From Lophium mytilinum (lineage: Eukaryota), in the NCBI GenBank assembly GCA_010093605.1, contig MU004197.1:248001-312000 (forward strand): a stretch of 64,000 nucleotides of DNA. Reading direction: 5' to 3'. Below are positions 17,601-41,219 of this stretch, piece after piece. Positions within the stretch are counted from its first letter, which is position 1, and every line of letters begins with the position of its first letter. The position numbers and the translations under genes were made by a program. The notes under the pieces were generated by a model. That model was not told where the DNA came from, did no database searches, and saw only the letters and a program-made list of their open reading frames with translations.

Positions 17601-18150
17601 CTTCTATATCCGCCCAGTGAACTGGATCCTGAGTAGCACCGACGTGCACGGAGAGGGCACATACCTAATCATCAGCCCGGAGGAAGCCAACGAGCTGCTG
17701 CCAATGATCATGTACTGGAAGCGGGTGAAGCTACACACGTACTCTGCGCGCACCCGCCTCTCCATGCGCACGTTCGAGGACCTCACCTTTTGCTCCATGC
17801 CGGCATTCTCGCCTCCGCGTTTCCCGTCGCAATCTATGCCTGTCCCGACTCTCATCAATCTTTTCGCGGGCCAGCTGTACTTCCGCGACTGGAGTGAGTA
17901 CGAGCGCGTGCGTCTGTTCTTGGGCATCTGCTACGACACGCAATATGCGAGGAGTGATGGGTTCGTGATGCCGCGGGATAGAAGCTTGGTTGCGCAAGAG
18001 CTGGAGGACTGTCGCTTTACCGTCTCGCCCGTCGGGTTCTTGAGGGCGCTTGTTAGCATTAGGCGGAAGGGACAAGGCTTCGAGCGGTCGCATATGGGTG
18101 CCCTGCTCCGTGGAGAGGCGGTGGATTTGGACGAGTTGATGGAGGGGTAG
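8655..18150 (+). CDS. Giant DUF6606/DUF3638/DUF3645-type protein with SF2-helicase-like P-loop region (paralog 1)
   Basis: Exon 1 8655-8955 (YVIDHVFLPPK), GT..AG intron 8956-9007, exon 2 to TAG 18150. Motifs QLNMGEGKSSVIVP, DVLDESDE, KRWRVQYGLD..LAVPFRAKDMPSARAEYSHPD, GFSGTND, HTRGTDLKLP, QACMRMR and EEQERE. Confidence 0.92.
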
Positions 18151-20369: not shown

Positions 20370-21370
20370 GGTTGTGGTGGTAGTGGAGGCGGGGATGGGT
20401 GAGTAGGTGTTGTTTTATAGTTGTGGGTAGTAGGTTTGTTTGCCTAATGGGGTGAGAAATGCGTACGACGACGTTTTAGGAATTAGATTGGCATATAGTG
20501 GTTTTCAGCGAATCGTTGGCAGCTAGTTTCTAATTATAGGTACGTAGTGATACGAACATAGTAAAAGAGGGGGATCGATCGCCGACAATAAGCATATCTA
20601 GCGGCGGCGCTCCTGCATTAGCGGCGGCGCGCGAGTGTTGGCGGCTTCGTAAGGCGGATGCCTGGGTGGTATGGATTACGGACATGGCGGACTTGACGGA
20701 CATGCCGGAGATGTACCTAAGTAGACCTCCAAGATATGCGGCACTGTTCACGATATGTTGTCCTGGACTTGTTGTTCCTTCTCATTATTCGACATGCTTA
20801 CTTCTGTCGATGATAGCCCATACCCCCGGCTTGCAACTTCTTGAAATCTCCGGTCCGAAGATCGACTGCTTCTACGGGATGTCTCGTTGCATTAGCATCA
20901 GGTGTGAGCATCTTGGGACAGCTATGAGTAGTGTAGATATATAGAGGGTATCAATGGAGCCAGGCCGATTTCATTACTCACGAGCTTCTTCTCTCCATAC
21001 ATACTAGTTGCCTCGTTGCTCATGACGTATATTTTGATAAGGCGGTCTTTATACAGCTGCGACGGTTGGAATGGGGTATAGCTTTCGATGCCATGGGTGT
21101 CGAGCCTTACTTCAGCGTGGACGAGCGCGAAGAGGCTGAAGACGCGGACGGTATTCTGTGAAATAGGGATCTCTTCAATTCTAGGCCACGTTCGATTTCA
21201 AAGTTTGGACGAGACTTCGGATTTGGGCATTGATAGTAGGTAAGCTGGAGTTCAATTAGACCTAAGGAAGGCCGCACATACTTGCTACAGTGATCTGTTC
21301 TATGTAGAAGTCTGCACCGCAAGCAAGCAGAACGCGCCCAAGTTCAATGGACCACTCTCCAGGAACACAG

Positions 21371-22366
21371 CTAGTGAAAGGTCAGAGGATGATCGAAAGA
21401 CCCGTCCGTGGATGCTACTACCTTCGCCAAATCCCTGCCGTCGTTCACTTCCCTCAAGGCAATCCTCATCTCACTACCATACGCTGTTTGCTGCCTTTGT
21501 CCTCGCCAGTCCCTCGTGGGTCGCGGGTGGTCGCTCGGCCTCGCATTCGCCATGAATCCCTTGAGATGCATACTACTCGCGAATTGCCACCAGTCTCCAT
21601 ATTCCGGTTGGTAGGAAAGCCCAACAACTGCATCCACCTGGCTTTCAGGTAATCTACCGACCAACTCGTAAGCGAAGCCCATGATACGCCTAGAACTCAT
21701 CCCAGGGCAGAACACCCAAACTATTGGCATGAGTCTCTCAAGATGGGCCTGCATGTGAAGAACTGCCGCCTTCCAGAAGGACTGCTGGAACATCGTGTCG
21801 CGCTCCTCGAGGTACTTAAGCAATGCCGGAGGTACCGTGAGGTCGATCGCCACACGCTTAATAGTATCGGGGATATTCTGGAAGGTGTTGCTCCAATCCT
21901 GAACAATCCTCAATGCGCCTGTATCCCATGTACTGACCGAGGTTACGAGCATTTTGCGGACCAGTGACTCGACAGTCAACCGTGGGAGTTGATCTTCCAA
22001 CGTCGCCAAGGTCCACCTTGGCTCCTCCGAGCTGAAGAGCTGTACCTGGATCTCCTCGAAACTTGACCATTCTCTCCTCGTTGATTCTGCAAGATTCCGG
22101 TAGTAGCGCTGGACCCTGTTCAGATGGCGGACCGCAGCTGGGGAGGAGATTCTCAGGATGGATTTGGGGCCTGGGAGCCAGCCACGATGGATCTGCTCCA
22201 CATCGGCTTGCAGGATCTTGCAAAGACCATTGAGCGGGGTCGAAAGGCTGAAGGGATGTGGGCCGTTTGAGCTGGCCTGGGCTCCACCGACATTGATTGT
22301 GATGGTCTCGGCGACAATCTGCTGTCGGATCTCGGCGGGAAGGGTGGTGAGGGTTGGTGGAGGCAT
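21371..22366 (-). CDS. Hypothetical protein with F-box-like N-terminus
   Basis: About 330-codon ORF from ATG 22366: MPPPTLTTLPAEIRQQIVAETI (LPxEIRxxI motif). Confidence 0.65.
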   Translation of the reverse strand: MPPPTLTTLPAEIRQQIVAETITINVGGAQASSNGPHPFSLSTPLNGLCKILQADVEQIHRGWLPGPKSILRISSPAAVRHLNRVQRYYRNLAESTRREWSSFEEIQVQLFSSEEPRWTLATLEDQLPRLTVESLVRKMLVTSVSTWDTGALRIVQDWSNTFQNIPDTIKRVAIDLTVPPALLKYLEERDTMFQQSFWKAAVLHMQAHLERLMPIVWVFCPGMSSRRIMGFAYELVGRLPESQVDAVVGLSYQPEYGDWWQFASSMHLKGFMANARPSDHPRPTRDWRGQRQQTAYGSEMRIALREVNDGRDLAKVVASTDGSFDHPLTFH

Positions 22367-22765
22367 CTGGATGTGGGTGCCACGGTCGCTTGGTGGAGTG
22401 GGTCTGGGTTGTTGTGGTCCGATCAAGGGTTGTTGATGGTCGCGGAGGTGATGCGGCCAAGAGGTTGGCCTTTTTAGGACACGGGCATGAGTGAGAACGA
22501 ATAGTGAAGGGACAACCTCGCTTACAGCGCCAAGGGAAACGGATCTACCGCTACGACTATGAGGACGCTGGAAAGCAATGTGTCTCCGGGCATCCCAAAC
22601 TGGCGATAGAGTTCCAGGTCTGGTCGAATAGGATGCCGTTCGAATGCCCGGATATTACGGACCTTAAGTTGCACGGAACTCACCTCGATGGACTTCCATA
22701 ATTCTCTATGTCCTTCCGCGGCGGGCCCGTCTAGGTCAGCCTGTATCTTCTCACTGATCGACGCC

Positions 22766-23141
22766 CTTACTAATCCTTGGCGCGCTGATGACTTTCTACC
22801 TATATAAAGTCCCCTCGTCCACGCGACCTTTCTTTCTCCAGGCTTCTCACGGTGTTTTACAGCCATGATCATGAAGTGCCGCTACCAAGGGAAAGCCTCC
22901 ACGCCACCTGGATGACACCGGACGGGCGGGGGCCCCTTGGGGCGCGCTCGCAACTTGATCGTATCTACATGGTATTCTTTGCGCGAGCGTTGGAGCAACT
23001 CCTCTGAAAGTTATGGCTGTAAGATTTCCTTGAGCAGGTCACCAAGCACTGAAAGGTATTGGTGGATCCGAGACCGTTTTTGCACCATGGCAAGGTGGAG
23101 GGCATTGGTTCTCTGGCCTTGTGCCGGAAGCTGAAGTCTTC
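22766..23141 (+). ncRNA. Putative structured ncRNA unit U1 (type 1, one module)
   Basis: TATATAAA 22801-22808 followed by a pyrimidine leader (ttctttctccaggcttctc) and a ccaaggg..cccttgg stem. Ends in gggcattggttctctggc-cttgt-gccggaagctgaagtcttc (23100-23141). Homologous to 24276-24831 (-). No shared ORF. Confidence 0.5.
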
Positions 23142-23386
23142 TTAATCTCCGCTCTTGGAGAGAGTGTTGTATTGGGCTGTGGTTCTTAAGGGTGGTGTTA
23201 AGGTGGTGGAGATCATCTGCAGTATCAAGGCACGGTAATCAGCGAAGCCCCCAGGCGAAGAGAGGCTGGAGTTTACGCGTATAGATGGTAATAGCATACA
23301 GACGTCATAGTGAAGGTTATCATTAGTCTTCAAAGCTGCACAATGCCAAAGCACCAAGCTTGAGGGAACATCGCAAATGGAAAAAA

Positions 23387-23912
23387 GAGACTTCAGTCTC
23401 CGGCACAAGGCCGAAAGACCAATGCCCCCGGGTCGGTCCAAGTGTCGCGTTTGGGTGAGAGCAATGTTGCAAGGGGAGAGAGTGGTCAGCCGGATGTAAC
23501 GACCTCACCGCTGGAGCTGCTGCTCTGAAAAGCAACAGCCACCACTCTTCTTAAGGAGGTTAAAATAAAAGTAAGAGACAAGCCTGTGTTAGCAGTCCTC
23601 CACCTCTTGAGACCGCTCTTGCCGCCATGGCTCTTGAATACGTAGGGGTGCTCCTAGCCTCTCGCACTCTGGTGTTGACGGAGAAAGAATCGTAGGTCCT
23701 CCTAGTGAAACCCCATGGCCACAACTGTCCGGGATCGACAGCTCTTGGGGGAGCGTGACCTTCCCTAGGCCAAGGGAGTGGCCACCTACCGTTGGAATCG
23801 AAGGAGGGAGGTGCGGACGAAGAAAGGAAATCCAACGCCAAAAGTAGGGGCGTTTAAATACGGCAAGAGGGAGGCGATGGCTTGACGACTTGACGAAGCC
23901 CGTGACTCTTCC
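23387..23912 (-). ncRNA. Putative structured ncRNA unit U3 (type 2)
   Basis: TATTTAAA at 23860-23853. Colinear with 37211-37780 (+), with the shared 3' motif at 23427-23389. Confidence 0.5.
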
Positions 23913-24275
23913 ATATTATCAGGTGATTCCCACACCTATGGCATGTCGCTGTTAGTCACTGTCACGAGCGAGGTCAGGTCTGAATCAATACCACGGGTTA
24001 GCTTGTTAACGTGATCACGTAAACGCATCTTAATTCTGTTCTTGTTAACCGAATGTAATATCAACCTCTAAATAAGGGGATTAGAACTTGTTATTCGTGA
24101 AGGTACTAAGGAGTTTACGGGAGTCTTGCATAGCTAAGGCACTACGGAATGATGGTCGGCAGTGAAATGGAATTACTATAACAATTGAAATCATTACGAA
24201 TTATAGTGAAGCTCAGTATCAACTTTGCCAGAATCCAAAAACAAAACTCGAGTTCAAACTTGCCAGTTCGAAAAG

Positions 24276-24831
24276 GAAGACTTCAGTTTCCAGCACAAGG
24301 CCAGATAACCAATGCCCTCCGCCTTGCCACGTTGCAAAACCGTTTCACCCCAAGGAAATGATACAACAAACGAGATCATGATGCTCAAACGATCGCGACT
24401 AAGACTCCATACCATTCAGATATCATCAAAGCGCTCACGCACCCCAAGGGCCCCCGTCTCCCGGTCGAGCAAAGATGACTGGGATGCCCTTGGTGATAGG
24501 ACACTCCCTCAAGGATGTTGTATAACCCGCATGAGAAGCAAACTTTCGATAATTGGCGACCTGCCCAAGGAACTAATACAATAAAAGAGATCATCATGCT
24601 CAAACGCTCGCGACTAAGACTACATACCATGTAGGTATCATATCAAAGCACTCACGCACCCAAGGGCCCCCGTCTCCCGGTTGAGCAAAGGTGGCTGAGA
24701 CGCCCTTGGTGAAAGAACACTCCCTCAAGGATGTGGTAAAACACGCATGAGAAGCCTGGAGAAAGAAAAGTCGGGTGGGCGAAGGGGGTTTATATAGGTA
24801 GAAATTCCTGAGCTTGCCAAGGATTAGTAAG
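24276..24831 (-). ncRNA. Putative structured ncRNA unit U2 (type 1, module duplicated in tandem)
   Basis: TATATAAA at 24796-24789 with the same upstream and leader sequence as U1. Two ~215-bp tandem modules (24349-24540 and 24565-24755), then the shared 3' motif at 24320-24276. Confidence 0.5.
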
Positions 24832-26537
24832 CCTGTCAACCAATCAGAGCGTACTAGATAGCGGCATGGAATGTCTATGAGTCGCGCGTTCTCCGGCATC
24901 TCCCGAGCCTCACGTGCCGTCGCTCACATGATCATTTTGGTGTCAGGAACGAAGTCACGAAGTCACCCCAGCCAATGTCTACAAAACATTGTTGGGCTTT
25001 TCTCATGGAGCTTCTCAATATTTGCCCAACTTCCCACCTAGCTGTGTGTATAATCCGTTTTCCCCTTGCCAAAGCTATGGATTGAAGCAAACTGCATGAT
25101 TATAGGAATGGCGAAGCCTAGTGCAATCGACTTTGCTGAAACGGTGATAGGCAAGGCTTCCACCGCAACGTCGAATCACACTCTTGGACGGACCTAAACC
25201 CCCTTGTGTCAAGAACAACAAGGTCCAGGAGTGCCATTGATGTCTGTAGTTGTCCAACCAGTCAAGAATTTGCAGAGTTGCAGCGAATGCGGAAACGTCG
25301 GCCATATTTTCAAAAACCATTCGGCTACCCCGTGTCTGTTCAAAAGACGAAAGGAACGGCAGCGTTCAAGAGAGCGTATGAGATCTGATACAAGTCGGAG
25401 GGCAGAGATCAGCGTAGGAAGAAGGGGAGGTGAACAATCCAGGATGTGCTCCTCTTCAGAGCAAGCGACTGGAAGGGTTGGAGGGGAGCTTGGCAATTGG
25501 GCTACACTTGAAAGCGAGGATAGGGATGAGCGCCGGGTGGTTGTTGTCTGTCATGAGACAGGATACCCCCATAGAACGAAAATGGCCCACGGCTGCAAAG
25601 GCGATCCCAGTGCTAAGAGATGTGAATCACGCTCTCATAATAAGATCGTCTTAGGCCGTCAAGAGCCTTAGTCGCCCCCGCTTCTTAAACAAGTGGTGAA
25701 GTGATATTCCCAATATGCTAGTTCCAACGATAGAGCTGGCACAGTGACAATGATGCACCATTTTAGGCCATAAAGACTGAATGAAAGCTAAGAACTCGCT
25801 TACTGCTAGATTCCGTCGAGTGGAGGGCAAGGAGAAGATGGCTCAACGCCGTGTTTCTGACCAAATTGGAGGGTAGGAGGTGAGCGAAGGCGTTGAGGGG
25901 TTGTATATTCGATGGGTCGAAAGCTACTTTGGGGAATTTCTATTAGAAGCAAGACGTGTAAATGGTCATGCGCGACAAGGCCCTTTTCTCTTGCTAGATA
26001 ACGAATACGCTAGGGCAAAGCGCGATTTATGGAAGGTCAATTGGCATGCCTGAAGCTAGGCTGAGTGTATGCCCATGAATGAGTGTTCTTCTAGAACTTC
26101 ACACTATTCAGGTCTCCTATTTTCTCAGGCATGACCGGTTCCTTGTCATTGTTGATGCAGTCAAAGCACCCGCGCCGCTTTTCTACTTCAAAAATTGTAG
26201 CAGAACACTTCCTTTGCGACTTGCAACCGGGCCCATGCCTTATAGTTTGGTTATCTCGTCCCTAGGCCCTTATTTGCCGACGTGTTCTCCCTTCGTGACT
26301 CTCGAATGCTCGGCCCGGCAAAATTTTAATCCATAGCTGTGGCATTCACTAAGTCTCCGGGAAAACGTCTTGCTGCCTAGAAACGAATCCGCCCACGAGG
26401 AACACGAAACCTCTGCACCATCTAAATCATCCCTACCTTCAGCGACATCGCCAACCCTACAGCAACACCATCTCCCTCCCCTCTCTTTGTCCCTCGACCT
26501 GCCACTTCCTGGGGTTTCAACTACAGTCGCCGTCACC

Positions 26538-29500
26538 ATGACGGGCGACAAGGACGCTCTCGCGTACATCATCGCGCACACGTTTCTACCGCCGCGAGTT
26601 CCACAGGGCGATGATGAGTCAACATCAATGAGCGAGGCTCTATATAACAAATTCTTGGAAGGGATGATCAGATACCAGGCGTTACTCGGGGAAGAAGAGG
26701 GTGCTTTGTGGGATTTGTGTATCCAGATGGTCAAGAGCGTTTGTACAGAGCTGGATACAAATAGGCTTCTTGTCAAGATCGAGTCGTTGGCCGTCGGAGG
26801 TATGTGTAGTATATATATTCACATCGAGCGATCACTAATCGTTATTGGCAGAGTCTTTGGCATTGCATATTTCCGCCCAGAATGCAGCACTTTTTATCCG
26901 GAAATCCGAATCTAGTACGGCCTTCGGGTCATTCGAGCTCTCTCCAAGTACGAGGATGGTAATGAGCTGCAAGGGCCGTCTGCGCCGTTCCATTCCTGGT
27001 CCGGCTATTGATATACCCAACACAGTCCTAGCAGATATGACTTTCCGAGATCCTGTGGTCGAAACACTCGTCAAGTTTTCCTCCGATACCCCATATGTGG
27101 TAAAGCCATCCACCAAAAAGGCCGGATCGACAGTCAATGAGATTCGCGAGACCATTGACCCTATCTTGGTTACCGGCATGCTGACTGGGGCGTTACGAGC
27201 TGTCGGGACTCCTGCAGATGTGGTTCGCATTCAAAAGAACACTCGAGATGATGTCCTTTGGGACAACAAGCTGAGGCCGTGGCGTCGATCACCTTTCTGG
27301 CTACTGCTACGTGCTGCGGTTCACACTACCTTGGCGCAGATTGATACAGACCTTGCACGAGCGACCCATCGCTACAAGCTGTTCATGATATTCTTCCTCG
27401 GAACCATCTTGGATTCGGCGATAGACGCATCACCACCGTTGCCGAGCGAACTCCTGTTCGTCATGAGCGCGAAAATTTCTCGGCGCATCCTGAAGCTGGA
27501 CATTCGTTTTTCTTTACTAGGGACCGAGAAGACGCTCTTAATTACCCAAGAACTACTCCGGAGTAGATGGAATAAACTTGAGACAGAAAAGGATCCGGCA
27601 GGGATTTGGGGAACATGGAACGACGCGAGCTTTAGAATCTCGGCTTGGGAAGATGTCGCGTTGAAGCTGCCAAAATTCCGATCGTACCTGGACAGTCTCG
27701 CCAATCGACCTCTATGCTCCTCAACGGCAGTCGATTTCAAGCCTGAGCGATTATATCGCATTAAAGAGTCTAGCGAAGCATTGTCATTTCGCATGATAGA
27801 CCCTATCTCTCTACCTACTTCACACGCGAAGCATATCATACTTGCTGATATTGAACGGTGGGTAGCCAATTGCCTTCCATCTTGGCTCACGAACAACATC
27901 CATTTGCCAACTACGGTAGTCCATCTTGCGGCAGTTCTAAAGACCTACTCCACCGCGGCAGTGCCTGCATACTCGGACCATCCTGTGCTACTCTCGCGGA
28001 TGTACCTTACCGTGATGGAAATATGGATTGGCATGGACAAAGCAGTCATTGAAGCCCATCCTGTCGTCGGCCAGGTCTCTGTCGGGTTTCCCCCTGCGTT
28101 CCTGGAGCCTCTGCTTCTACCTTCAAAGGAAGACATGGATCGATTGTTGTCTATAGAGCAATACCTTACCGAGAGGAACCGCTTCGATCCGTCTGGAAGG
28201 CAGACAAATTATTTATCATCGGAAGCCAATGGCCTAGCATATAAGTTCTACGACAGTTCGACGGCTCTAAGGGAACTACGCGAGAAGATAATGCTAGATG
28301 CTGAGAAAGAGCGAGCCAAAAAGTGTGACCAGATGCAAATCGCGAAGGAGAGCCATAGTAGACGACTGGCAGAGATCAACGAGCGCGAGCATTTTCATCA
28401 GTCTAGAATCAACAAACGAGGGACTACAGTATCGGAACATATCGAAACGCAGTGCCAGACGTGCGTGGCTTTAAACAGATTGAACGCAATGACAATCGAT
28501 GTCTATGAGATGCCAATACCTTTGGACGAAGTGCAGGCCCGGCTGGTAATGTTTGAGCTAGGTATGCCTGAAGAAGTTCGACAATGGCGAACCGCTACCT
28601 ATCGATTGCAATTTGAAATTATAGCATCCCAGGCCCAACAATCCGGGCGGACTAAAGCGAAGGAGAAGATCTACTTCTTACGGGACTATTGGCCGCTGAA
28701 CCGTTACCGGCATAATGAGAGTCGTTGCAGCCTCGAAGAAGGACTACAGCTTGGATCGGAAACGAAGTCATTTGTTGTCGCACATTATAGAAAGCCAACA
28801 GTGTCTGCATCGCTCAGCGAGAACGATGTCATCGTAAACCACGGTATGAAGTACAACATGTATGATTCGCGCACATCTAGACCAGCAGAGGGCTTACTCA
28901 GTCTTTGCGATTTCGATATTCGCTCACGTTGTACTTTCAGGATCCCGAAAGGATCTTATAGCAAGCTGGATTTTGCGATCTCCGATACCAAGCAGACATC
29001 AAACCAAATCACCGCTCTGCAGTCTGATTGTCCGACAACAATGCACCTAGACGAGTTCACTGCTTTCGGGAATTTGCGTGCTGGTCACCGAGTGCAATGG
29101 TTAAGCATTGCAAAGGAGCTCGCCGCTAGAGAGCTGTCGTTCGGACGATACGAGGTTTGTGCCTTGTTTGTCCAGGCATGTTGGCAAGCGGGGCCATCCG
29201 AGCCATCGAGTTCACTCCGCGAAGCTCACCTTATACTCGAACTGGAACACGTCGGTCTGACACTGCTAACGACGATGGAAGATAATTTGTCTCTGATTAC
29301 GAAAAACTGGGAAGGCACTATGGCAGCTCGTATCTTCACTGTGATTGCAGCCCGTTTATTATCACTTTGCACTCATCAAGATCTCCGTACAAAGGCTCGA
29401 TCATTTCTACGTCGAGCTCGGGACATTTCCCTCGCCTGGACTCGGGAGCTGCAAGAAAAGGTTCACAAAACCATTGATGACGTCGAGCGTAGTAGGCTGC

Positions 29501-32500
29501 GTGTAAAGCTATTGGAAGCCGCATTGGTTTGTCATACAAGCTTTGGTGTAGATTTTCTTTCGTCGTCCGATTCTATCTCGCCTCAAGATGATGTTTCCGA
29601 TGCTCTCGAATGCCTCATCACGATTCAACAAAACTACCCCAGAGACAAGCGGAGTATCCCATTTTCTATCCGCGACCTCTTGATGGAGTCCTTCCACCTG
29701 TGTCACCGTTATGAAAACAAAATGCGGCACAGAATTCTAGAAGATAGTTCAGGGATCGATGCGGCAATAGGACGTATATGGAAAGATTACCAGCCTTGTG
29801 GAGAATGGACTATGGTAGCCGCACCTAACGGGCATTGGGTTACAACATCCACGAAACCCTCGATCACACGTGAGCCTAGGAGCATTCATCTAAGCCTACT
29901 GACGGGTGAGCTCTTGGTTGATGGCAAGCCTATATCGAGACTACCCCCTGAATTCGAAAAACACCCAACCTTCAAGCGGCTGTTTGGCAAGCGTATTCTC
30001 GACGTTGTCTCTTCGGATATGAACGGCATGGATTACAGAGTTCGAAACCACATTGAGGGATATGGAATCCATTTGGCAATGTGTGATACAGAGTTGATTA
30101 TTCATGCAATCGCCGAAGACGGTCATGAAATTCAGCTCATTCCGTCAAGCAAACTGGAAGGAAACTTGCCAAATGCTCTGGTCCAAGATCACGTCCACTG
30201 GCGCCACCTTGACAATGAAGTTGTGGAGTGGCGTCTCGCCAAGTCACCATGGATCGCTGAGGTAGTACCTTGGAAACTTATCCAGAACAGCGATAGCACT
30301 ACTTGCACATACCGATTGCACCAGGGAAACAAGATTCTCGTTGAAAATGATAGCTCCATCGGTCATGTCTTGGCAGCTTTACTTGCGCCGCTCGAGCAGA
30401 CGGACAATATCCAGATCACTCTTGATGAACTTGCCAGGACGGTTGAAGTCCATCTTCCGCGCCTCAATCTGGATTTCGCCCTCAGCGCCGACATGTCCAC
30501 TCTGGAGTCGAAACAATTCCGTGGTTACATGATAGATGACGACCAAACAGTCGGGACCATGACTGGATTGAAAAACAAGCTTGTTTTGAGTAACCTCGAT
30601 AGCTCGAAGCGGTGTATTATTATTCCATACGGGAAGGTCAGTTGCGTCAAGAATAGCAATCACGTAGACGTCACGATTGACGCTGGTGGTACAAGCCATG
30701 TTTCATATTACGTGTATCATGTCGATTTAGTCCTTGGAAGATTGACGGGTAACGACACTTTGACGGGAAGTTTGTTCAAAGCGTATCTGCACGCTATGAC
30801 TTCCCATTGCCTGCCCGACCGACTGACGGGTAGGACGGGGACTGAGGAGGCGCTGAACTATCTTCAAGGCGCAGCGATTCGGTCATATACGACCTTCACT
30901 GATGATGATGCAGACCTCCTATCGCTTCTCGCTCGTCTGACGCCGCAGCGAGTCTTCTATCCCAAGAACAGCAAGCTCATGCAGCAAACAGAATGGTCAG
31001 ACCTGCCAGCACACTCTCAACACAATCGCTTCGGGACGGAAGTCCGGGCCGTCATAGAGCATTACAACAAATTGAATTTCCTTTCCAATCAGCTTATTCC
31101 GAAGATGGATCTGCCTCAGCTTGACCAGCACCTGCTCGAACGAACTAGCATTCGGGATGCTTCATACCGTGGTGACGGTTATGGTGCTGAGCTTTACACA
31201 ACTCAACACGATTCTGTTTACGTAACTCGAGATGATCAAGAATGGGGGAAAGTAGAACTTCGATCCTATGAAGCAGCGAGGCTGGTCTGTTCATGGTCTG
31301 TAGATCTTAAGTGCGACTTCCGCATCTGGAACTTCCTGCGAGACGGGGGAAAAGCTCCGATTCCAGGAGTAATTGCTCAGAATAAGCCCTATTTTGAACT
31401 AGTTCAGAATCTAAGTTACGATCCGGCGTGGCTAGATGCCGGAGACGACTTTCTTGCTCACGTCTGGTGGTCATTGCAGTCCCGCCTGTCTACAGCTGTT
31501 GAGGCTGTGGATAAGTACAAGATCATGCTATTCCTTTGCACGCTCAGTTCATACGGCCGGACTTCCGAAGGAAAAGCCAAGACTCTCCTTGCGTTTGCGA
31601 TTGTCCCTAGGCTTCGCGCTTTACGGCCTCCTCGCATCCACGCCTTCGATCCTTACGGTCGCACCAAGCCCTCTAGACGAGACCTCCTGGAGTTGGCAAG
31701 GCAGTACCTGCGCAACCCAGCTAATTCCCCAGAAGCCTATTTGCGTAAGCTACGGCACGAAAGTAATGTCGAATTCGAGAATCGCTGCAGACGCAAATAC
31801 GAGGAGGAGGTTGATCGGAGTGAGCAATTGTTTGTGGACGTACTAATGAGACACTGGCTGGTTCCATTCGATGGATTTCCTCGCCTTTTCGAATTTGAGT
31901 CTATCACACAATACATGGATACGGCCGCTGCAGTGCAGATTGCAGAAAGAGACTTTTGGGATATCTCTGACAATTTCCAAGCCCGAGACTATATCGACTA
32001 TCTTCAGGCAATTTTGAACAGTCTCAACATTGAAGTTGGCCCCTCACGGCCGTATTCTTTGCCACTGTCCCCAGCAAGCAAGTCCGAAACGACCCGGTAT
32101 ATCGGATACTATGATCTTTTCCAAACTTCTCCACCCACCATAAGCCCGCCCGTCCAAAGCCCAGATTTCTCACAATGGATGAGAGCTGCCGCCGAGGATA
32201 CCATGAAGCATGGAAAACTGGATGAACTGCTATTGCGACTCCGCTCGAAGCACAAGGATAGCTTTCCAGCCGAGTACATGCAAGAGCTTCAGCGAAGTTT
32301 GGACGCTTTAAACAGCTCGTCTCCCATCACGGATCTCGACGATCTACGCGAAGGGATTGCCAATGTCATTCGGGAATACCTGAGAGTTTCTTTGCACCGC
32401 CTTGAGTCAATTGAAGATGAAATACTGAACGCGATGAAAGACGGAACCAAAGAGCTGTCTGAGTTCGACTTGTTTACCATGCTAGCACCACGACTATCTC

Positions 32501-35500
32501 GGATGTCCCTCTTGGAGCACTTGTCAATTAAGAAGCGCAATGTAGTATCTCCAGACTGGAAGAATGTACTCATCCAGTATGGTGAAGCAATCAGCGCCGT
32601 TCAGCGTGCTCATCGTTTGCATCAGGCCGTCCGCAACCCCCACGCAAACTCCACGGAGCTATCGAGAGAACTTACCAACGCTAGTCATCCGAACTCGACA
32701 TGGGACACGCACAAGTACCCAGATTGGCTTCTCCTAGAATTGGAGAACGACATATTGATACGCGACGAGCAGGTAAACATTGGCCTTTCCATGATTCATC
32801 CGAAGGACAACAAAAACTCAATCTATCAATTGAATATGGGCAGAGGAAAATCAACCGTCATAGTTCCTATGGTCGCTGCGGCGGTCGGCGATGGGTTCAA
32901 AATGACGAGGGTAGTGGTGCTGAAATCTCTAGCTCCCGAAATGCAAGCTACCCTTATCGCGAAGTGTAGTGGACTGCTTGGGAGAACGATATACTCTATG
33001 CCGTTCGCAAGGTCTCTTAAACTTCTACCCAGCCTGGTTAGAAGGATTCGCGAGATCTGCCAAGAGTGCATGCGCACAGGCGGTATACTTCTTGCTCTAC
33101 CTGAACATCTGCTATCGTTCGAGCTGATGGGATATGAGAGTATCTTGAACAAAAAAGCAGCACTTGGCAAAGAACTTTGGATCACTAAGCGCTGGCTACG
33201 GGATAACGCACGCGATATTCTTGATGAATGCGACGAGCTGCTCAGCGTTGCTTCTGAGCAAATATATACGATGGGTACGCAGAGCCAGATTGCGTATGGC
33301 GCGCAACGATGGACGATGGTCCAATATCTCTTGGCCATTGTAGCTCGAAAGGCGAAAGAAGTTTTTAATTCGTTCCCCGACGGAATTGAATTTGAAGACA
33401 AAAATGGACCTGGAAGCTTCCCCCAGATTCGAATCCTGCAACCGCAAGCTGGCGATCTGTTGCTAAAGTCTGTTGCTCGCGAAGTGAGCTCGAACGGATG
33501 CCCTATCGCTCATTTTAGGGTCCGAGATCTCTCAGCAGTGTCGCGAGACAAGATATACAGAGCAGTCACAGAAATGGATTCGTCTGAGCTAGAGGACTTA
33601 CGCCTGTTAAGAGATCAGGGAAAGATCGATCAGCCCACTTGGAACTCCATCCTGATCCTTCGTGGGTTGATCGCCTTTGGGATTTTCAAATTCGCTTTTG
33701 AGGAAAAACGCTGGCGGGTACACTATGGCCTTGACAGAACGCGATCTGGCTTAGCTGTTCCTTACCGCGCAAAGGACGTGCCTTCTGCGAGAGCAGAATA
33801 TAGTCATCCCGATTCGACTATTGTACTCACTCACTTGAGCTACTATTACGAAGGGCTACCGGACAAAGAGATGAGAAGTACTTTTAGTTCTTTGTACCGC
33901 TCCAATAACGCGCAAGAAGAATACGAGTCTTGGGTTCGGGATGCCGACGGAATCCCGGTGGAGTATCGCCACATAGAGGGCGTTAATCTTCAAGACACCG
34001 TTAGGTGTAGTGTCGATATCTTCCCGCACCTTCGTTTCGTTAAGCGAGTCATCGATTTCTACCTTTCTTCGCTTGTACTCCCAGTCGAATTGAGGGAATT
34101 CAAGCAAAAGCTTTCCGCCTCCGGTTGGAATATCGCGGAGGACCGAGCCCACCCAACAACTGGCTTCAGTGGCACGAATGACACTAGCTACCTACTTCCA
34201 CTTTCCATTGCTCAATCGGACGTTATGGATCAGTTACACACAAATGCGGCTGTTCTAAGTGATATTCTTGGATTGGAAAATTCGTACAAGAAAATCATGG
34301 GCACATCCACCAGCCGGCCCGTGAGCGCAGAGATGCTACTCCAAATGGTCACCGGTCTAGATCCACCAGTACGAGTAATCCTTGACGTCGGCGCGCAAGT
34401 CCTCGACCTACGCAATGAAGGTGTTGCGCAACGGTGGTTAGATATCGTGCCTGTCAATGAGGCGGAGGCGGTCGTTTTCTTCACTGAAACCGATGTCCTT
34501 TATGTTCTCGATCGAAAGGGCAAATTAGAGCGTCTTGCAGTTTCTCCGTTTTTGCGCCAGATGGATCGCTGCTTAGTTTACTTCGATCAAGCGCATACGC
34601 GTGGAGCAGACCTCAAGCTCCCGAAGCATTATCGAGCAGCAGTAAATCTAGGGCCTCTATTAACAAAAGACCGGATCGCGCAGGCATGCATGCGGATGAG
34701 GGAGCTTGGCAAAGGGCAGTCAGTTGTGATGTGTGCCTCGGAAGAAGTGGAAAAGCGAATTCGGGATACTTGCCGTATAGATGCAGCGGGCCATGTAAAC
34801 GTCTCACATGTCTTGGAATGGTGCATTGACAATACCTGCACCCAAATTCGCAAGGAAATTCCCCTGTGGGCAAAGCAGGGACAGAGATACTTGGATCAGC
34901 AATCTACACTTCTCAGGATGGACACAGACATCAAAGATAGCTTGCCGCTAAACGTAGCAGAAGAGCTCCTTGAGGCCGAAGCACAAGATTTGGAGACTCG
35001 ATATGGGGCCAAACCGCAAAGCCTGCTTCCTGATTTCGTCTTCTCATCAGGAGAAGGCGGGTCTCGGAGTCGATCAACCAAGCTGAATGACATAATTGCT
35101 CGATGTTACAGATTCAACATCAATTCTTCCAGCGGTACCACCTTGGGAGATGAGCAAGAACGAGAGCAGGAGCTATGCCCCGAGAACCAGCGCGAGCAAG
35201 AAGTGAATCGGCCTCGTCCCATGCAGCCTTTGAAGCATACTGTCCATAGAAGTATCAAGCATTTCGTCGAAACGGGTATACTTCTGGAGGATGCAGGTAC
35301 GCAGCCAGCATTCACAAGTCTAACTTCTACAAGCGCCGCGAAGCACTCAGGTCTGGACGAGTGGCCTCAAGATCTTCGAGTTACTATGGATTTCGCCAAG
35401 ACTGTCAAAGCACTACCGGGCCATCTTCTTGACAAGTATCTTAAACCGGTAAACTGGATTTTGAGTGCACACCACGACGCAGGATCACAATATCTCATCA

Positions 35501-35997
35501 TCAGCCAAGAAGAGGCTAATGAGCTTCTCCCGTCAATTCTTGGCGGCGGCAAAGTCACCTTACATGTCTATACTCCCCGGGTTCGGCACTCAATGCGATC
35601 CTTCGACGATCTGTCCTTCTGTGAAATCCCCCAGGCGGCCACTAGCACGGTACCTCCACAGATTGCCACCTCCATCGGTTGCTTCGCAGGCCGAACCTAT
35701 TTCCCGGACTACGAGGAGTATCAGTCAACGTGTGACATGCTGGGGCTTTCGTACGATACGCCGGGTGCACACAATGATGGTTTTGTTCCACCGAAAGATA
35801 GGTCTACGGTGCGATTAGCTCTGAGCCAGTATACAATTCGTCATTGCCCGTTTACAGTTTCTCAGATCAACTTGCTCAGAGAAGTTACAGCCATCAGGCG
35901 AAAGGACCAAAGCGTTGAGCGCTCGCACATGGGAGCAGTGTTCCGGGGAGAAGTTTTGAGTCGGGGGGACTTTGACTTGCCATTGCGTCCCCGTTGA
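26538..35997 (+). CDS. Giant DUF6606/DUF3638/DUF3645-type protein with SF2-helicase-like P-loop region (paralog 2)
   Basis: ATG 26538 (MTGDKDALAYIIAHTFLPPR), intron 26800-26851 (GTATGT..CTAAT..CAG), exon 2 to TGA 35997. Motifs QLNMGRGKST, DILDECDE, LAVPYRAKDVPSARAEYSHPD, GFSGTND, HTRGADLKLP and QACMRMR. Confidence 0.92.
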
Positions 35998-36258
35998 TGA
36001 TACGTCAAGTAGTCCCATAGATGTAGATATGGGTAACCAATGGGTTTATAAGTGACGGTCTTGCTGTAGTATGGGTAACTTTGACCGACTTTCATAGCGT
36101 TTTAGGTACTGGCAATCCAATTGTTCCTCTATTTCCAGAAGCTTTAATAGTGATCAAACATGTTCTTGCACTAACTATATCTTACTATCCCTGCCATAGT
36201 AGGCGGTAAGTCTGAGCGCACGAATATGAACCGGCGCTAGCTCTAACCTTGCGCGCCC

Positions 36259-37122
36259 AACACTACTGTGAGGAGTAGCCCAGCTAGCTAGTAGCTGGCT
36301 CATCAAAAGACAGTCAAAGTTCCGCTCTATCCAATTTGACATCGTATTCTGGTCTGAATTAGCTCATGAAGGCGCCCCAAGCAGAGGCAACTGGACATCT
36401 TCATTCCCTTTTCTTTAGTGCTGATACTCATTCGGCTCCATACACCTTCGCTTTAGAACCCTAGATGTGTTCTCAGTGAAGTTAGACAGACGGATATAAC
36501 GCTACTAGGAGTTCCCTCTTGCTTGCTTAATACCAATGGCAGGAGCAGCCCCGTCGTGTCGAATTCGGCCAATCAATAAGTGTCTTGATTCCTACTGCAT
36601 TATCCTTATCATTGATTTCCCTCGCGTCATATTTCCGCACTCAAATTCAGCCCTGCTTTCGTTCAGCCTTGCCTGCTTCACACCAACGTAAGGGGTGGTC
36701 CAGCAAGCGGGTGGTGAGCCAGTCAAGAGAAAGTCTAAATTAAATTCCTATAACCTTACCATTCTTTCAGGACGTAATAAGGTACACGTCCGTACACCAA
36801 CCTGAATATTTAGTACTCCTAGTTTACACTTGCTTATTTGATGCCACTGTGTGGGTTACCTCAGCTTTGAGCTGGCTAAATCAGTAAAAGGCAGTCTGGT
36901 TTCCACCGTTTCAACTATAGTATACTGTTGGCGTAGGTATATGTAAAGCTAGCCGGAATTACCACTGCTTCCGAGCCAATTTGAAACCTAGAAACCACTG
37001 TCAGGAGCACCCCCGGTGCCTGGAAGTTGGCTAGTCAAATGGTTCGTCAAACTTCGCTGCATGAAGCTTGACATTGCGGCTAGACTTGTGAGGTCCTACG
37101 AAGGTACCCCGCGCGGTGGCAA
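36259..37122. repeat. Second, more degenerate array of family A ~125-bp repeats
   Basis: Unit starts at 36263, 36533, 36683, 36844 and 36995. Ends CAGAGG 36387 and CGGTGG 37119 give 125-bp units. The 36263 unit shares aggagtagcccagctag with the 19118 unit. Confidence 0.75.
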
Positions 37123-37210
37123 ACGAGCTTACAAGAGCTTCTAGACTGCCGGTGATCTAGAGCTCTCAGCGAGAGACAGTATCACGTGACCGAGAAAAAA
37201 ATTGACGAGT

Positions 37211-37780
37211 TCACGTGAAAGAGGGAAAGTCACGGGATTGCCAAGGCGCCAAGTAAACGTCTCCTCGCTTGCCGTATTTAAACCCCCTCACTTCTGGTTT
37301 TGGGTTTCCTCTCTTCCACAACTACCTTCTTCCCTCCCTCCCTCCCTCCCTCCCTCCTCCCTCCTTCAATTCCAACGGTAGGTGGTCAGCCCTTTGGCTC
37401 GGGCAATCCACTCCCCCAAGCTGTCGTCCCCGGGCAGCTGTGGCCAAGGGGTCACCTAGGAAGACCTACTCGCTCCTTCGCCGGCCCCGGGTGTTGGAGG
37501 TTAGGAGCACCCCTTCGTATTCAAGAGCCATGGCGGCAGAGTGGCAGAAACAGGTGGAGGACCTGCTAACACAGGCTTGTTTCTCTCTTTCTTTTTCCCT
37601 AGGAGAGTGGTGGCTGTTGCTTTTGAGGGCAGCAGCTCCGCTGGGGCAGTCAACTGACTGACCACTCTCCCCCCTTGCAACAATAGTCCTGCCCAAAAGC
37701 GTAATTTGTTTGACTCGACAACATCTGGACCAACCCGGGGGCATTGGTCTTCCAGCCTTGTGCTGGAGGCTGAAGTCTTC
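37211..37780 (+). ncRNA. Putative structured ncRNA unit U4 (type 2)
   Basis: CACGTG 37212, GCCAAG 37240 and TATTTAAA 37275-37282, then a (CCCT)n leader. Intron-like GTAGGT 37378 .. GCTAACACAG 37573, stem ggagagtggt..accactctcc, and 3' motif gcattggtcttccagc-cttgt-gctggaggctgaagtcttc. Confidence 0.5.
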
Positions 37781-40127
37781 TTGAGATTCTTTTCCTACCG
37801 TGGGCATTAGGGACAATGAAGATAAGGGCGTTGGAGCTGCAATACTGGTGCTGCTAGCTGAAGATACGTGTCCTTTTCTTCATAATCTTTGGTGATGATT
37901 AGCACCGATTGATCATGTTCTGCAACGAATATGTAGATAAGTAATAGCAGCAGAGTTTACCAATTAATAATGACCGCCTCCATCTATCTTGGGCCATGGT
38001 CTTGTCTTTACCTCACCACGCGATATCAAAAGTATCCCATAAGATAATTCAGTGTTGCCCTACTCTAGGATCGCGTCGAACTCTGAACCTCCCCACCGCG
38101 GCCCATCCCCACCGCGCTTTTCGCAATTACAGCACGATCAGCACAACAAAGACAGGCTTCACCATACAAACGCGTAAGGAAACGCGCTTGACGCGTTACA
38201 TAGTAAGCCAAGCTACTCCTTACTAGACGATAGCCATAATTTCCGTCGCCGTGAAACTGTTCGCCCAGGCTGACATGCTGCCGCAGCCGTACCTTTCCAG
38301 AACCCGCACAAGCGTGCGAACAACCTTCGCGAGCCTCAAGCTAGTAGTACTCGCTTCTGCCATCCAATCCTAGCCTACCAAATCCTGACTCCCCAACGCC
38401 GTGCCGCGCCGCCATAACACCAGGTCACTTCTATACTTGGGGAAGGAGGATTAGGGAGGGGGAGGAGGTATGCTAGTTCAAGGAGGAGTGCTCTATGGCG
38501 CAGGGCTAGGCCTTTTCCACCGTCATGCTTAAGAGGCAGGCTTAGGGACTCCATGGCGAGATTTCCAAACACCGCACCGAAGAATGTGGCATCTTCTTTT
38601 GCGGCTTTGAGCTCCAATCTCAGAGTCTAGCGATATAACACACGTGGTTCAAGCGTGCCGAGGGCGAGGGCGAAGCCCTGCGCGCCGTTGCTAGGCGTTG
38701 TCGAAATAAGGCGTGTTTGAAGTCCTCGATTGCGAATAAATACTAGGACGCAAGGAGTGGTTGAACTTCTGACTCCACTGGCTTCGGTAGCATGCACTGG
38801 GAAAAGAAACATCAGATACATCTTTAGGGTAGGCATACCCCCCGTTCTGTGCGCTTCTCTAAGTCGACGACCTATAGCAACACCATATTGCTGGCGTGCA
38901 TGAAAATATTGTCCTGCCTTGAACTGATGTGCAATAAGAGAAAGGCGTGTGGCGCACTTGGGGGCAGACAGGGTACTTCAATAACAAATTGGGAGCGAGC
39001 GGAAACTTTCAAGTCATTCGTATTGTGCTGAAGAAGAATCGGAGGTCTCATGTACGGAAAATCGGTCCTGAGGGATAGGGCAGGGAGATAGGAGAGTATA
39101 GGAGAGTGTGACGACGGCGGCGAAGAGAGGACATAGGTAGAATCGCTGGTCATCGTAAAGTTTAGTATTCTTTATCTGACTCTTATTCATCTGCCCTATC
39201 TTCTTCAGCCCTGAAGCTCACAGCCGGTCTTCAGCGTCGTCTCCGCCAGCAGCAACACAACTCCCAGCGCGATAGCGCCTCTACGAAATGAACGCTGCCT
39301 CAAAATTCACCCCAGTAGGCGCGGCAGGGAGAGCAGATTATGAGAGGCATACGGCGCGCCCCCTCCAACGAAAAGCTCCACGGACGGCTCGATGAGGAAG
39401 TGGTTGATATATCCAGATCTTCGGGTTGTAGAGATGGAGGTGGCCGACGACGACGCGGAGCGCTCGAAACGTAGATTGTAAGGTTACTAGAGAGGGTGAC
39501 ATCTAGGAAGCCACCGTTAGCTAATGTCATGAAGGGCCTCTTTTTTATCTTCCTACTCTTACTCGCGCCCCTTCATCGGTTTTTGGAACCCGCCTTGGGA
39601 TTGTTGTCCAGCCAGCGTACCCAACAGCCCAAAACCTCAACATCATGATATTGTTGTGGGCCAGCGCGCGAAGCGTCTGCGGCAGCAGGCTCGTCGGTCA
39701 TCGTCGTCGAGAGAAGGCGTCGAGAAACGCGGCACGGTGAATATGCCAGCAAGGGATTGAAAGCCGGCTCCGCTAGAGCAGATTTGTAGAAAAGGTGTCG
39801 AAGATCGATTCGCTAGGCTCGTATGGGAGGTAGGTTGCCGTATAGGGCATGGCTTCGACGTGGAGGTGGCCGTGGATGGAGATCTAGACCAAGGAAACCT
39901 GTGGCGGGGCTTGAGGAGGAGATGTTGGAGTGTATATCTATCGCTATACCGTAGAGACGATGGCGGAGCGGCTGTCAACAGCTTAGATAGTCGGGGTTGA
40001 TTGTGCTTGTTATGACTAGCTCTGCTAGAGAGCAGAGATTTTCACGGCAACATCATCAACGAGAACACGCACGCATGAGCGATAGGCCAAGGGCTGGCAG
40101 ATGGTAAACCGAGTTGCTTGCATTCTT

Positions 40128-40660
40128 CTTCAAGGTCCCACACAAGGCGAGAGACTCAATGAAAAATTGTGGTGCAAGCACCTGCCCGGGCCCCTCCATC
40201 GCCCTGGGCTCGTGATGGCCATACCACGCGACCGTGCCACCTCCGAAGAGAAAATAGGGAAGAAGCTACGAGGAAAAGAGCGCACCCGCAGGCACGAGAA
40301 GACCCGGGCCCCTCCACCGCCACTGGGTTCGTGATGGCCATGCCAGGCGACTGCGCCACCTCCGAGGGGAGAAAAGAGAGGAGAAACTACGAAGAAAAAG
40401 AGCGCACCCGAAGGCACGAGAATGTCCGGGCCCCTCCACCGCCACTGGACTCGTGATGGCCATACCACGCGACTGTGCCACCTCCGACGAGAAGAAAAGA
40501 ATCGCACCCGAAGGTGTGAGAGAAGGTTGTAGGAAGGAAGCCTGGAGCTGGGGCGGAGAAGTTTAAATAGTCGGGCAAAAGTATCTAACGCTAGCGCCTT
40601 GGCAACCTTCTCTCGAAGATGCAGTCAACAGTGACGTAGACGCGCCCAAAAACCCACGTG
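40128..40660 (-). ncRNA. Putative structured ncRNA unit U5 (type 3, three tandem ~120-bp modules)
   Basis: TATTTAAA at 40569-40562 with ttgccaaggcgc upstream as in U4 and a leader ctccaggcttc as in U1/U2. Tandem units at ~40185, 40303 and 40425. Degenerate 3' motif cattgagtctctcgc-cttgt-gtgggaccttgaag at 40161-40128. Confidence 0.45.
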
Positions 40661-41219
40661 GATGGTGGATTTCTATGCTGTGGGACCACTTCACTAATAA
40701 GACCTCTTGGCTCCAGGCGTTCCCTGTCTTATTATGCACGTGCATGGGTCTTAAGCTGGAATTGTAAGCAACATGTTCAAATTATAAGCATATTCAGGAG
40801 TTGATCAAGCAACCGCAGAGCACATATGCCCCGACAAACATAATCAGCGCGCCTTGTTCATCTCTTGCAGGTAGAAGTGAGTAGAAAAGTGGCCTGGGCA
40901 CGTTCTCCGTTGATGTTAGGGCAATAATAACTATAATGCTGCCCTGAACGTCGTCAAATCCGAAAGTAGTATCTGAAATACATCAGCCCAGAGCAGAAAT
41001 GAGATGTGCTCACGCCGTGGTGACATCACTGGCACTCCTTCATCGTACAGTCATCTCGTAAAGCGTTGATGTATTAAAGATTAACTCTGCAAAACCCATC
41101 GTATATTGCCAAAGCTACATCAACTGAAGGTATGCCTCGTCAACTCCCGAGCGTTTGACAGAGTCGACCTCAGTCAAATAATACCTCTTTCTGCTAACGT
41201 CTAAGACTTTGAATAGCAC

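Follow-up and report, generated by a model that had tools for sequence, protein, structure and literature searches.

Five units with a common layout

A stretch of 64,000 nucleotides (nt) from Lophium mytilinum (GCA_010093605.1, contig MU004197.1, positions 248,001-312,000), hereafter called the window, carries five short units that end in the same RNA hairpin. All coordinates given below are window positions. Comparison with other fungal contigs, where the same hairpin follows U1 and U2 small nuclear RNA (snRNA), small nucleolar RNA (snoRNA) host, and ribosomal RNA (rRNA) genes, suggests that the units are probably genes for noncoding RNAs (ncRNAs) and that the hairpin probably serves as a 3' processing and termination signal.

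A sequence-only reading of this DNA had described five dispersed units, each with a TATA box, a pyrimidine leader, and a shared 3' motif, and all of these observations held up. The pattern CATTG-N(8-22)-CTTGT-N(8-22)-TGAAG has five matches in the window, where 0.05 would be expected, and none of 100 shuffled sequences contained more than one. The copies lie at 23103-23136(+), 23391-23424(-), 24281-24314(-), 37742-37775(+), and 40128-40161(-), and all five have the identical spacing of 34 nt even though the pattern permitted gaps of 8-22 nt. A TATA box can be read in every unit, followed by a pyrimidine-rich tract. In both pairs of paralogous units (1 and 3; 2 and 4), alignable sequence extends from an upstream box before the TATA box to just past the 3' motif. 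Since the alignments begin and end at these points, the flanks have fully diverged and the whole unit appears to be under constraint.

A 46-nt hairpin closes every unit

The proposed 3' stem-loop is real in all five copies, but it had been drawn with a stem of only 5-9 base pairs (bp). When 7 additional nt are included on each side, every copy folds as one 46-nt hairpin with three helices, which consists of an outer helix of 6-7 pairs, a box, a middle helix, one unpaired nt on the 5' arm, an apical helix, and the loop CUUGU. Within the box, CAUUG pairs with UGAAG through a C-G pair, an A.A mismatch, a U-A pair, and the pairs U.G and G.U, and the apical helix is closed by G-C and C-G pairs below the loop. 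The result is the extended stem and small loop typical of RNase III substrates, with 19 pairs, one A.A mismatch, one bulge, and a 5-nt loop. The distance from the loop to the invariant box is 11-15 nt along the 5' arm and 10-14 nt along the 3' arm. Predicted folding energies of the window hairpins range from -14 to -22.1 kcal/mol, corresponding to z-scores of -2.75 to -3.95 relative to dinucleotide shuffles.

The loop is CUUGU in all five window copies while the stems change and still pair, as the sequence-only reading had claimed. Covariation extends to the outer helix, where unit 5 has UUUUUC/GAAGAA in place of the G(A/G)GGGC/GUCU(U/C)(C/U) of units 1-4. The unit 5 form (TTTTTC/GAAGAA in DNA) also occurs in 9 of the 14 metagenome copies that were aligned with the window hairpins. 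These relatives were collected by scanning metagenome contigs with the pattern CATTG-N8-GCCTTGTG-N8-TGAAG, which returned 40 loci, 19 with the same three-helix fold and 21 without it. Fourteen of the 19 structured loci were aligned with the five window copies, and the remaining five (L025, L017, L016, L029, and L032) were left out as having hairpins the same as, or nearly the same as, those of L023, L003, L008, and L040.

Over these 19 aligned hairpins, of which 14 come from loci selected by their fold, standard pairs occupy 90.3% of the cells, compared with 48.5-52.1% when partners are slid by 1-3 columns. Changes on both sides are present at 13 of the 19 pairs, in 92 cells, and the observed covariation score was reached by none of 500 shuffles. 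A 48-position covariance model, R1, was trained on 14 of the 19 structured loci together with the alignment of the window copies. Searched against the window, it recovers only the five known copies (59.2-60.3 bits), the next match scoring 11.5 bits. The 19 structured loci, 14 of them training loci, score 54.7-66.3 bits versus 21.2 bits or less for the other pattern matches.

Genes that precede the hairpin in other fungal contigs

A line of evidence that does not depend on the selection by fold comes from what lies upstream of the hairpin in the structured metagenome loci. The 19 loci were searched with Rfam at gathering score, and additional U1 matches were taken at E-value thresholds, below the gathering score. 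A stable RNA gene supported by Rfam is located just upstream and on the same strand in 12 of the 19 structured loci versus 0 of 20 unstructured ones (L039 lay outside the search). In one contig (L031), large subunit (LSU) rRNA occupies positions 1-335 and the motif starts at 338. Full-length U1 snRNA precedes the hairpin at a distance of 0-10 nt in L010, L036, L025, L018, and L006 (E-values 1.8e-12 to 4.7e-6, these being the matches below gathering score). In L003 and L017, the end of U2 snRNA as placed by Rfam lies about 65 nt before the motif, and an intron read by eye in the last U2 stem-loop would bring the true end nearer to the hairpin.

The remaining matches are clusters of snoRNAs. In L004, L008, and L016 the hairpin comes after Afu_300, Afu_513, and snR75, in that order and on the same strand, and in L028 it comes after Afu_513, snR75, and snR73, again on the same strand. 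Splice signals read by eye place each box C/D snoRNA of L004 and L028 in its own intron, with the hairpin about 30 nt past the last 3' splice site, in a short terminal exon. Among the other structured loci, L023 and L020 have too little upstream sequence, although the end of a U2 can be read by eye in L020. Five closely related contigs (L014, L040, L011, L029, and L032) carry a purine-rich sequence, GGAGGAGGATGGTGGGGAGGGGG..., upstream of the hairpin, for which no Rfam match was found.

In the metagenome U1 and U2 genes, the TATA box is separated from the initial A of the mature RNA by 41-53 nt, the last of which form a pyrimidine tract, and the window units agree with this order of TATA box, pyrimidine tract, and A. 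The hairpin is not peculiar to a single new RNA family; the same element follows U1, U2, snoRNA-host, and LSU rRNA genes. Judged from these comparisons, it appears instead to be a general signal for RNase III-type 3' processing that is common to housekeeping RNAs.

Some of the snRNA genes themselves seem to be interrupted when read by eye. The 5' end of U1 in L018 and L006, ATACTT(AC), is split by an intron-like sequence of the form GTGAGT ... CTGAC/CTAAC ... AG. Its removal by splicing would give ATACTTACCTTG, the sequence present in the unsplit gene of L010. The loop of the last U2 stem-loop in L003 is split by GTAAGT ... TAG, and a second intron near the 5' end is possible. Thus, the U1 genes of L018 and L006 and the U2 genes of L003 and L017 appear, from their sequences, to be split by spliceosomal introns.

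Upstream elements and the TTGCA(A/C)C string

Positions of the window features are collected in Table 1. In units 1 and 3, an A within AGGCTTCTCA comes 39 nt after the TATA box. Units 4 and 5 share the box TTGCCAAGGCGC, which starts 37 nt before the TATA box, despite their unrelated bodies, and this box may be a proximal promoter element of the gene class. In units 1 and 3, CCTTGGC lies inside an upstream box that is different from that of units 4 and 5. The leader of unit 4 also contains a (TCCC)n microsatellite (8.8 copies, 37331-37364), which the paralogous unit 2 lacks.

Another string, TTGCA(A/C)C, had been listed as part of the shared layout, and every unit indeed carries it, 10-61 nt 5' of the motif, though the body types are unrelated. 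It does not qualify as a general signal, because the window shows no enrichment (20 occurrences of TTGCAMC versus 16.9 expected) and the string is absent within 100 nt of the hairpin from all 19 related loci. The string may be a species-specific element or may occur by chance.

Table 1. Positions of features of the five units and of the overlapping public contig
Feature	Position	Strand	Evidence or remark
Unit 1 upstream box CTTACTAATCCTTGGC	22766-22781	+	20 nt 5' of TATA box; common to unit 3
Unit 1 TATA box TATATAAA	22801-22808	+	then pyrimidine tract; predicted start A at 22840
Unit 1 cargo, type A, one module	22840-23095	+	5' and 3' parts pair in long closing stem
Unit 1 3' hairpin	23097-23142	+	covariance model R1, 59.9 bits; fold; motif match
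Unit 2 3' hairpin	23385-23430	-	covariance model R1, 60.0 bits; fold; motif match
Unit 2 leader and cargo, type B	23431-23852	-	alignment with unit 4
Unit 2 intron-like segment GTAGGT ... CTGCTAAC ... AAG	23550-23789	-	240 nt
Unit 2 TATA box TATTTAAA	23853-23860	-	read in sequence and in unit 2/4 alignment
Unit 3 3' hairpin	24275-24320	-	covariance model R1, 60.3 bits; fold; motif match
Unit 3 cargo, type A, two tandem modules	24349-24755	-	period 216
Unit 3 TATA box TATATAAA	24789-24796	-	predicted start A at 24757
Unit 3 upstream box	24816-24831	-	common to unit 1
Unit 4 upstream box TTGCCAAGGCGCC	37238-37250	+	starts 37 nt 5' of TATA box
Unit 4 TATA box TATTTAAA	37275-37282	+	read in sequence
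Unit 4 intron-like segment GTAGGT ... CTGCTAAC ... TAG	37378-37602	+	225 nt, conserved
Unit 4 long hairpin, putative second exon	37603-37669	+	conserved with unit 2
Unit 4 3' hairpin	37736-37781	+	covariance model R1, 59.6 bits; fold; motif match
Unit 5 3' hairpin	40122-40167	-	covariance model R1, 59.2 bits; outer helix TTTTTC/GAAGAA
Unit 5 cargo, type C, 2.6 tandem modules	40185-40500	-	period 122, 60-nt conserved core
Unit 5 TATA box TATTTAAA	40562-40569	-	read in sequence
Unit 5 upstream box TTGCCAAGGCGCT	40594-40606	-	same box and spacing as unit 4
TTGCA(A/C)C, units 1-5	23080-23086, 23466-23472, 24331-24337, 37675-37681, 40171-40177
Run X1 667-nt contig over unit 3	24076-24742	- (assumed)	depth 15.5, no differences

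Three types of cargo

Alignments and Tandem Repeats Finder confirm the earlier claim that the bodies are of three types, present as one, two, or three tandem modules. Type A occurs in unit 1 as one module and in unit 3 as 1.9 copies with a period of 216 nt, type B occurs singly in units 2 and 4 (79% identity over the aligned stretch), and type C occurs in unit 5 as 2.6 copies with a period of 122 nt. The three types are mutually unrelated by blastn, and a blastn comparison of the five bodies with the 40 metagenome loci returned only self matches and paralogue matches inside the window. The bodies had also been called hairpin-rich, which is true of type A but not of the others. The body of unit 1 folds with a z-score of -2.99 and is equaled by only 1 of 200 shuffles, and the three aligned type A modules support a long closing stem that joins the module ends. 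By contrast, units 4 and 5 have z-scores of +1.15 and +2.64.

Units 2 and 4 have the most elaborate organization. A leader is followed by a conserved intron-like segment ending in YAG, a conserved long hairpin, and the 3' hairpin. Because the intron-like segment is conserved as much as the rest, the functional RNA of these units may lie within it. In types A and C, reading by eye turned up no convincing splice signals.

The cargo RNAs are new to Rfam, in agreement with the statement that no known RNA family could be recognized. An Rfam 15 search of the whole window at gathering score yielded no matches. Several familiar classes were considered for the cargo. Strings resembling the C and D boxes of snoRNAs (TGATGA-like and CTGA) are found only in single type A modules and do not fall in the same columns in all copies, and an alignment of type C read by eye contains neither kind of string, so box C/D snoRNAs were rejected for both. 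Considered as a possible box H/ACA snoRNA, the intron-like segment of type B folds as two domains followed by CUAACACAG, but its hinge lacks ANANNA, in a comparison of only two sequences.

Public contigs and neighboring genes

Contigs of a public run, X1, whose RNA nature is only guessed and which shares 0.17 of sampled words, were aligned with positions 21200-41000. Three contigs were obtained (24076-24742, 25242-25427, and 39653-39866), with no joints. The first, 667 nt long, begins 15 nt after the predicted start of unit 3. If X1 is RNA, then unit 3 would be expressed and cleavage or termination at its hairpin would be incomplete, whereas if X1 is DNA the contig is uninformative. The other two contigs (depth 2.5 and 2.76) lie outside the units, and that at 25242-25427 falls inside a 157-codon open frame without a Pfam match.

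The neighboring genes are two paralogues whose open frames, at 9004-18150(+) and 26839-35997(+), span 3048 and 3052 residues and encode DUF6606, DUF3638, and DUF3645 domains, and the five units lie between and just after them. The Atlas neighbours of a protein adjacent to the units indicate that the window comes from an ascomycete. Nothing ties the units to these genes functionally, and the suggested link to DUF3638 genes is therefore unsupported.

Comparison with known processing signals

Nuclear RNase III enzymes (Rnt1 and Pac1) act on the 3' external transcribed spacer (3'ETS) of pre-rRNA, on the 3' flanks of snRNAs made by RNA polymerase II (Pol II), and on snoRNA precursors, and Rnt1 cuts 14-16 nt from its loop. 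Because the hairpin is found after rRNA, Pol II snRNAs, and snoRNA precursors, which are these same substrate classes, it can be read as a candidate RNase III site. Such positions are seen in the metagenome relatives and not in the window itself. Besides the three substrate classes, the hairpin shares with Saccharomyces cerevisiae Rnt1 substrates a fixed-length stem with an invariant loop, and 10-15 nt separate its conserved box from the loop, roughly the distance of Rnt1 cleavage. With its strict length and invariant loop, the hairpin may, by analogy, be measured by a ruler mechanism like that of Rnt1.

There are nonetheless clear differences from the yeast substrates. The hairpin has a CUUGU pentaloop closed by G-C and C-G rather than an AGNN loop, it adds the CAUUG/UGAAG box with its A.A mismatch and tandem U.G/G.U pairs, and it has a constant one-nt bulge on the 5' arm. 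A strict Rnt1 substrate with an AGNN or AAGU tetraloop is ruled out by the CUUGU found in all five window copies (in the 14 metagenome copies the search pattern itself imposed this loop). For the 3'ETS, the double-stranded RNA-binding domain of Rnt1 is reported to have to bind the AGNN loop for cleavage to occur (PMC3579876).

The closest parallel in position is offered by Schizosaccharomyces pombe, where Pac1 hairpins are described directly downstream of snU1, snU2, snU4, snU5, snU3, and snU32 and trigger termination (PMC8421224). Those hairpins come directly after the mature snRNA and have small loops (3-5 nt), and termination independent of polyadenylation has been proposed for them. Their stems measure 23-32 nt and the accessible portion of the same report mentions no shared loop or box sequence (PMC8421224), whereas the hairpin described here has a 19-bp stem and strictly conserved sequence blocks.

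Two other kinds of genes invite comparison. As in snoRNA host genes and the C/D clusters of Aspergillus fumigatus (PMC2377427), Afu_300, Afu_513, and snR75 in L004, L008, and L016 are each intronic as read. The host layout of L004 resembles that of units 2 and 4, with a leader, a conserved intron-like segment, a short 3' part, and the hairpin. The window cargos differ from snoRNA host genes in lacking C/D boxes conserved between modules and any Rfam match at E<=5. The metazoan snRNA 3' box, with Integrator, likewise serves Pol II snRNA-type genes as a 3' signal of their own and is coupled to a special promoter. It is a linear sequence element rather than a hairpin and is not known to occur after rRNA.

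Proposed mechanism and alternatives

The reading that we favor, with somewhat better than even confidence, is that an ascomycete mould carries these units as ncRNA genes of the Pol II snRNA/snoRNA type and that the 3' hairpin is a processing and termination signal for nuclear RNase III. Each gene would run from an upstream box and a TATA box through some 40 nt, the last of them a pyrimidine tract, to a start at A, the cargo, and the 46-nt hairpin. The hairpin would form no part of the mature RNA and would be bound by an Rnt1/Pac1 orthologue that recognizes the invariant GC-closed CUUGU loop and cuts about 14-16 nt from it, within the invariant CAUUG/UGAAG box. The upstream product would then be trimmed to the mature 3' end, and the downstream product would provide an entry for a 5'-3' exonuclease that stops the polymerase. 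We infer the enzyme, the cut sites, this torpedo step, the transcription starts, and expression of the units. The sequence-only reading had already proposed ncRNA genes of Pol II type that share a 3' signal and differ in an interchangeable cargo, and the comparison supports that part of its claim, with transcription from the predicted strands still putative.

Several observations weigh against this reading. The structured metagenome loci were chosen by fold, so the pairing statistics are inflated, and the invariance of loop, box, and spacing outside the window was fixed by the search pattern. The Rfam contexts, which are independent of the selection by fold, are not affected by this inflation. 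The metagenome contigs were taken as fungal by their content. Regions 22600-25000 and 37100-40800 have no Rfam match even at E<=5, leaving the cargo without a known family, and types B and C are no more stable than shuffled sequences. The 667-nt X1 contig passes through the hairpin of unit 3 and continues 200 nt beyond it. The rules established for S. cerevisiae Rnt1 do not transfer directly, because the loop is not AGNN, and cleavage and expression in this organism are deduced from sequence comparison.

In the alternative that fares best, although it is distinctly unlikely, some factor besides RNase III would recognize the hairpin as a signal for 3' end formation or termination, for example a CUUGU-binding protein (Nrd1-Nab3-Sen1-like or Seb1-like) or another endonuclease complex. 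An invariant single-stranded loop and an internal box would suit contacts by a sequence-specific protein, a CUUG-type motif binds Nab3, and a position after ncRNA genes is compatible with any 3' end signal. A termination pathway specific to Pol II would be insufficient, however, because the hairpin also follows LSU rRNA (L031), which is a Pol I product. Moreover, RNase III enzymes measure stems of this kind, about 19 bp and strict in length, and the set of genes involved matches the substrates given for Rnt1 and Pac1 (PMC8421224; PMC3579876).

A Dicer-type substrate, that is, a microRNA-like precursor with conserved arm ends, is improbable. The stem of about 20 bp and the conserved arm ends fit such a role, and in Candida albicans a single Dicer is reported to do both jobs (PMC3579876). 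Yet the middle of each arm varies freely with compensation, unlike a conserved mature small RNA, and the housekeeping contexts indicate processing rather than targeting. A. fumigatus also keeps a separate Rnt1, which is conserved and apparently intact (PMC10275271).

There is very little chance that the units are copies of a nonautonomous mobile element or a dispersed repeat whose shared ends are its termini. Five copies within 18 kb with similar 5' and 3' ends and variable insides might give that impression, but model R1 finds only five copies in the 64-kb window, the bodies are of three unrelated types, and the hairpin at their 3' end also follows U1, U2, snoRNA-host, and rRNA genes elsewhere. 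No terminal inverted repeats or target-site duplications were noticed on reading the flanks, with no dedicated repeat search made. Genes for short proteins or peptide precursors, with the hairpin as a 3' untranslated region (3' UTR) element, are just as improbable: the TATA promoters, the tandem modules, and a 164-codon open frame over unit 5 are offset by leaders without an ATG in units 2 and 4, by a first ATG only near the end of the unit 5 frame, by a 122-nt period that breaks the frame because it is not a multiple of 3, and by frame-breaking indels between units 2 and 4, all of which agree with the earlier statement that no open frame is conserved between copies.

If the RNase III reading is taken further, a broader proposal can be made, which we regard as tentative and somewhat less probable than its negation. 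Filamentous ascomycetes might use an undescribed RNase III code in which a GC-closed CUUGU pentaloop and, at a fixed distance, a CAUUG/UGAAG box containing the A.A mismatch replace the AGNN loop of budding yeast, the hairpin might tag every Pol II snRNA-type gene, and the five units might represent three new classes of tandemly amplifying, capped nuclear RNAs that are neither snRNAs nor canonical snoRNAs. Among the literature matches listed, from a library with few subscription journals, none described the hairpin or reported Rnt1 substrates in Pezizomycotina.

Concluding remarks

The element appears to belong to a known functional kind, the RNase III-type 3' processing hairpin of ncRNA genes, with a sequence signature unlike AGNN. 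If it is a true RNase III site of filamentous ascomycetes, it would provide a compact and defined recognition code for an essential enzyme. The 48-position covariance model would then find Pol II ncRNA genes, whether annotated or not, in moulds that include plant and human pathogens; in this window Rfam yielded nothing. The hairpin would also offer a portable, polyadenylation-independent terminator for guide RNAs or other ncRNAs expressed from Pol II promoters in moulds. Finally, the comparisons draw attention to three types of cargo RNA that would use the housekeeping snRNA/snoRNA expression route and that seem to amplify in tandem.

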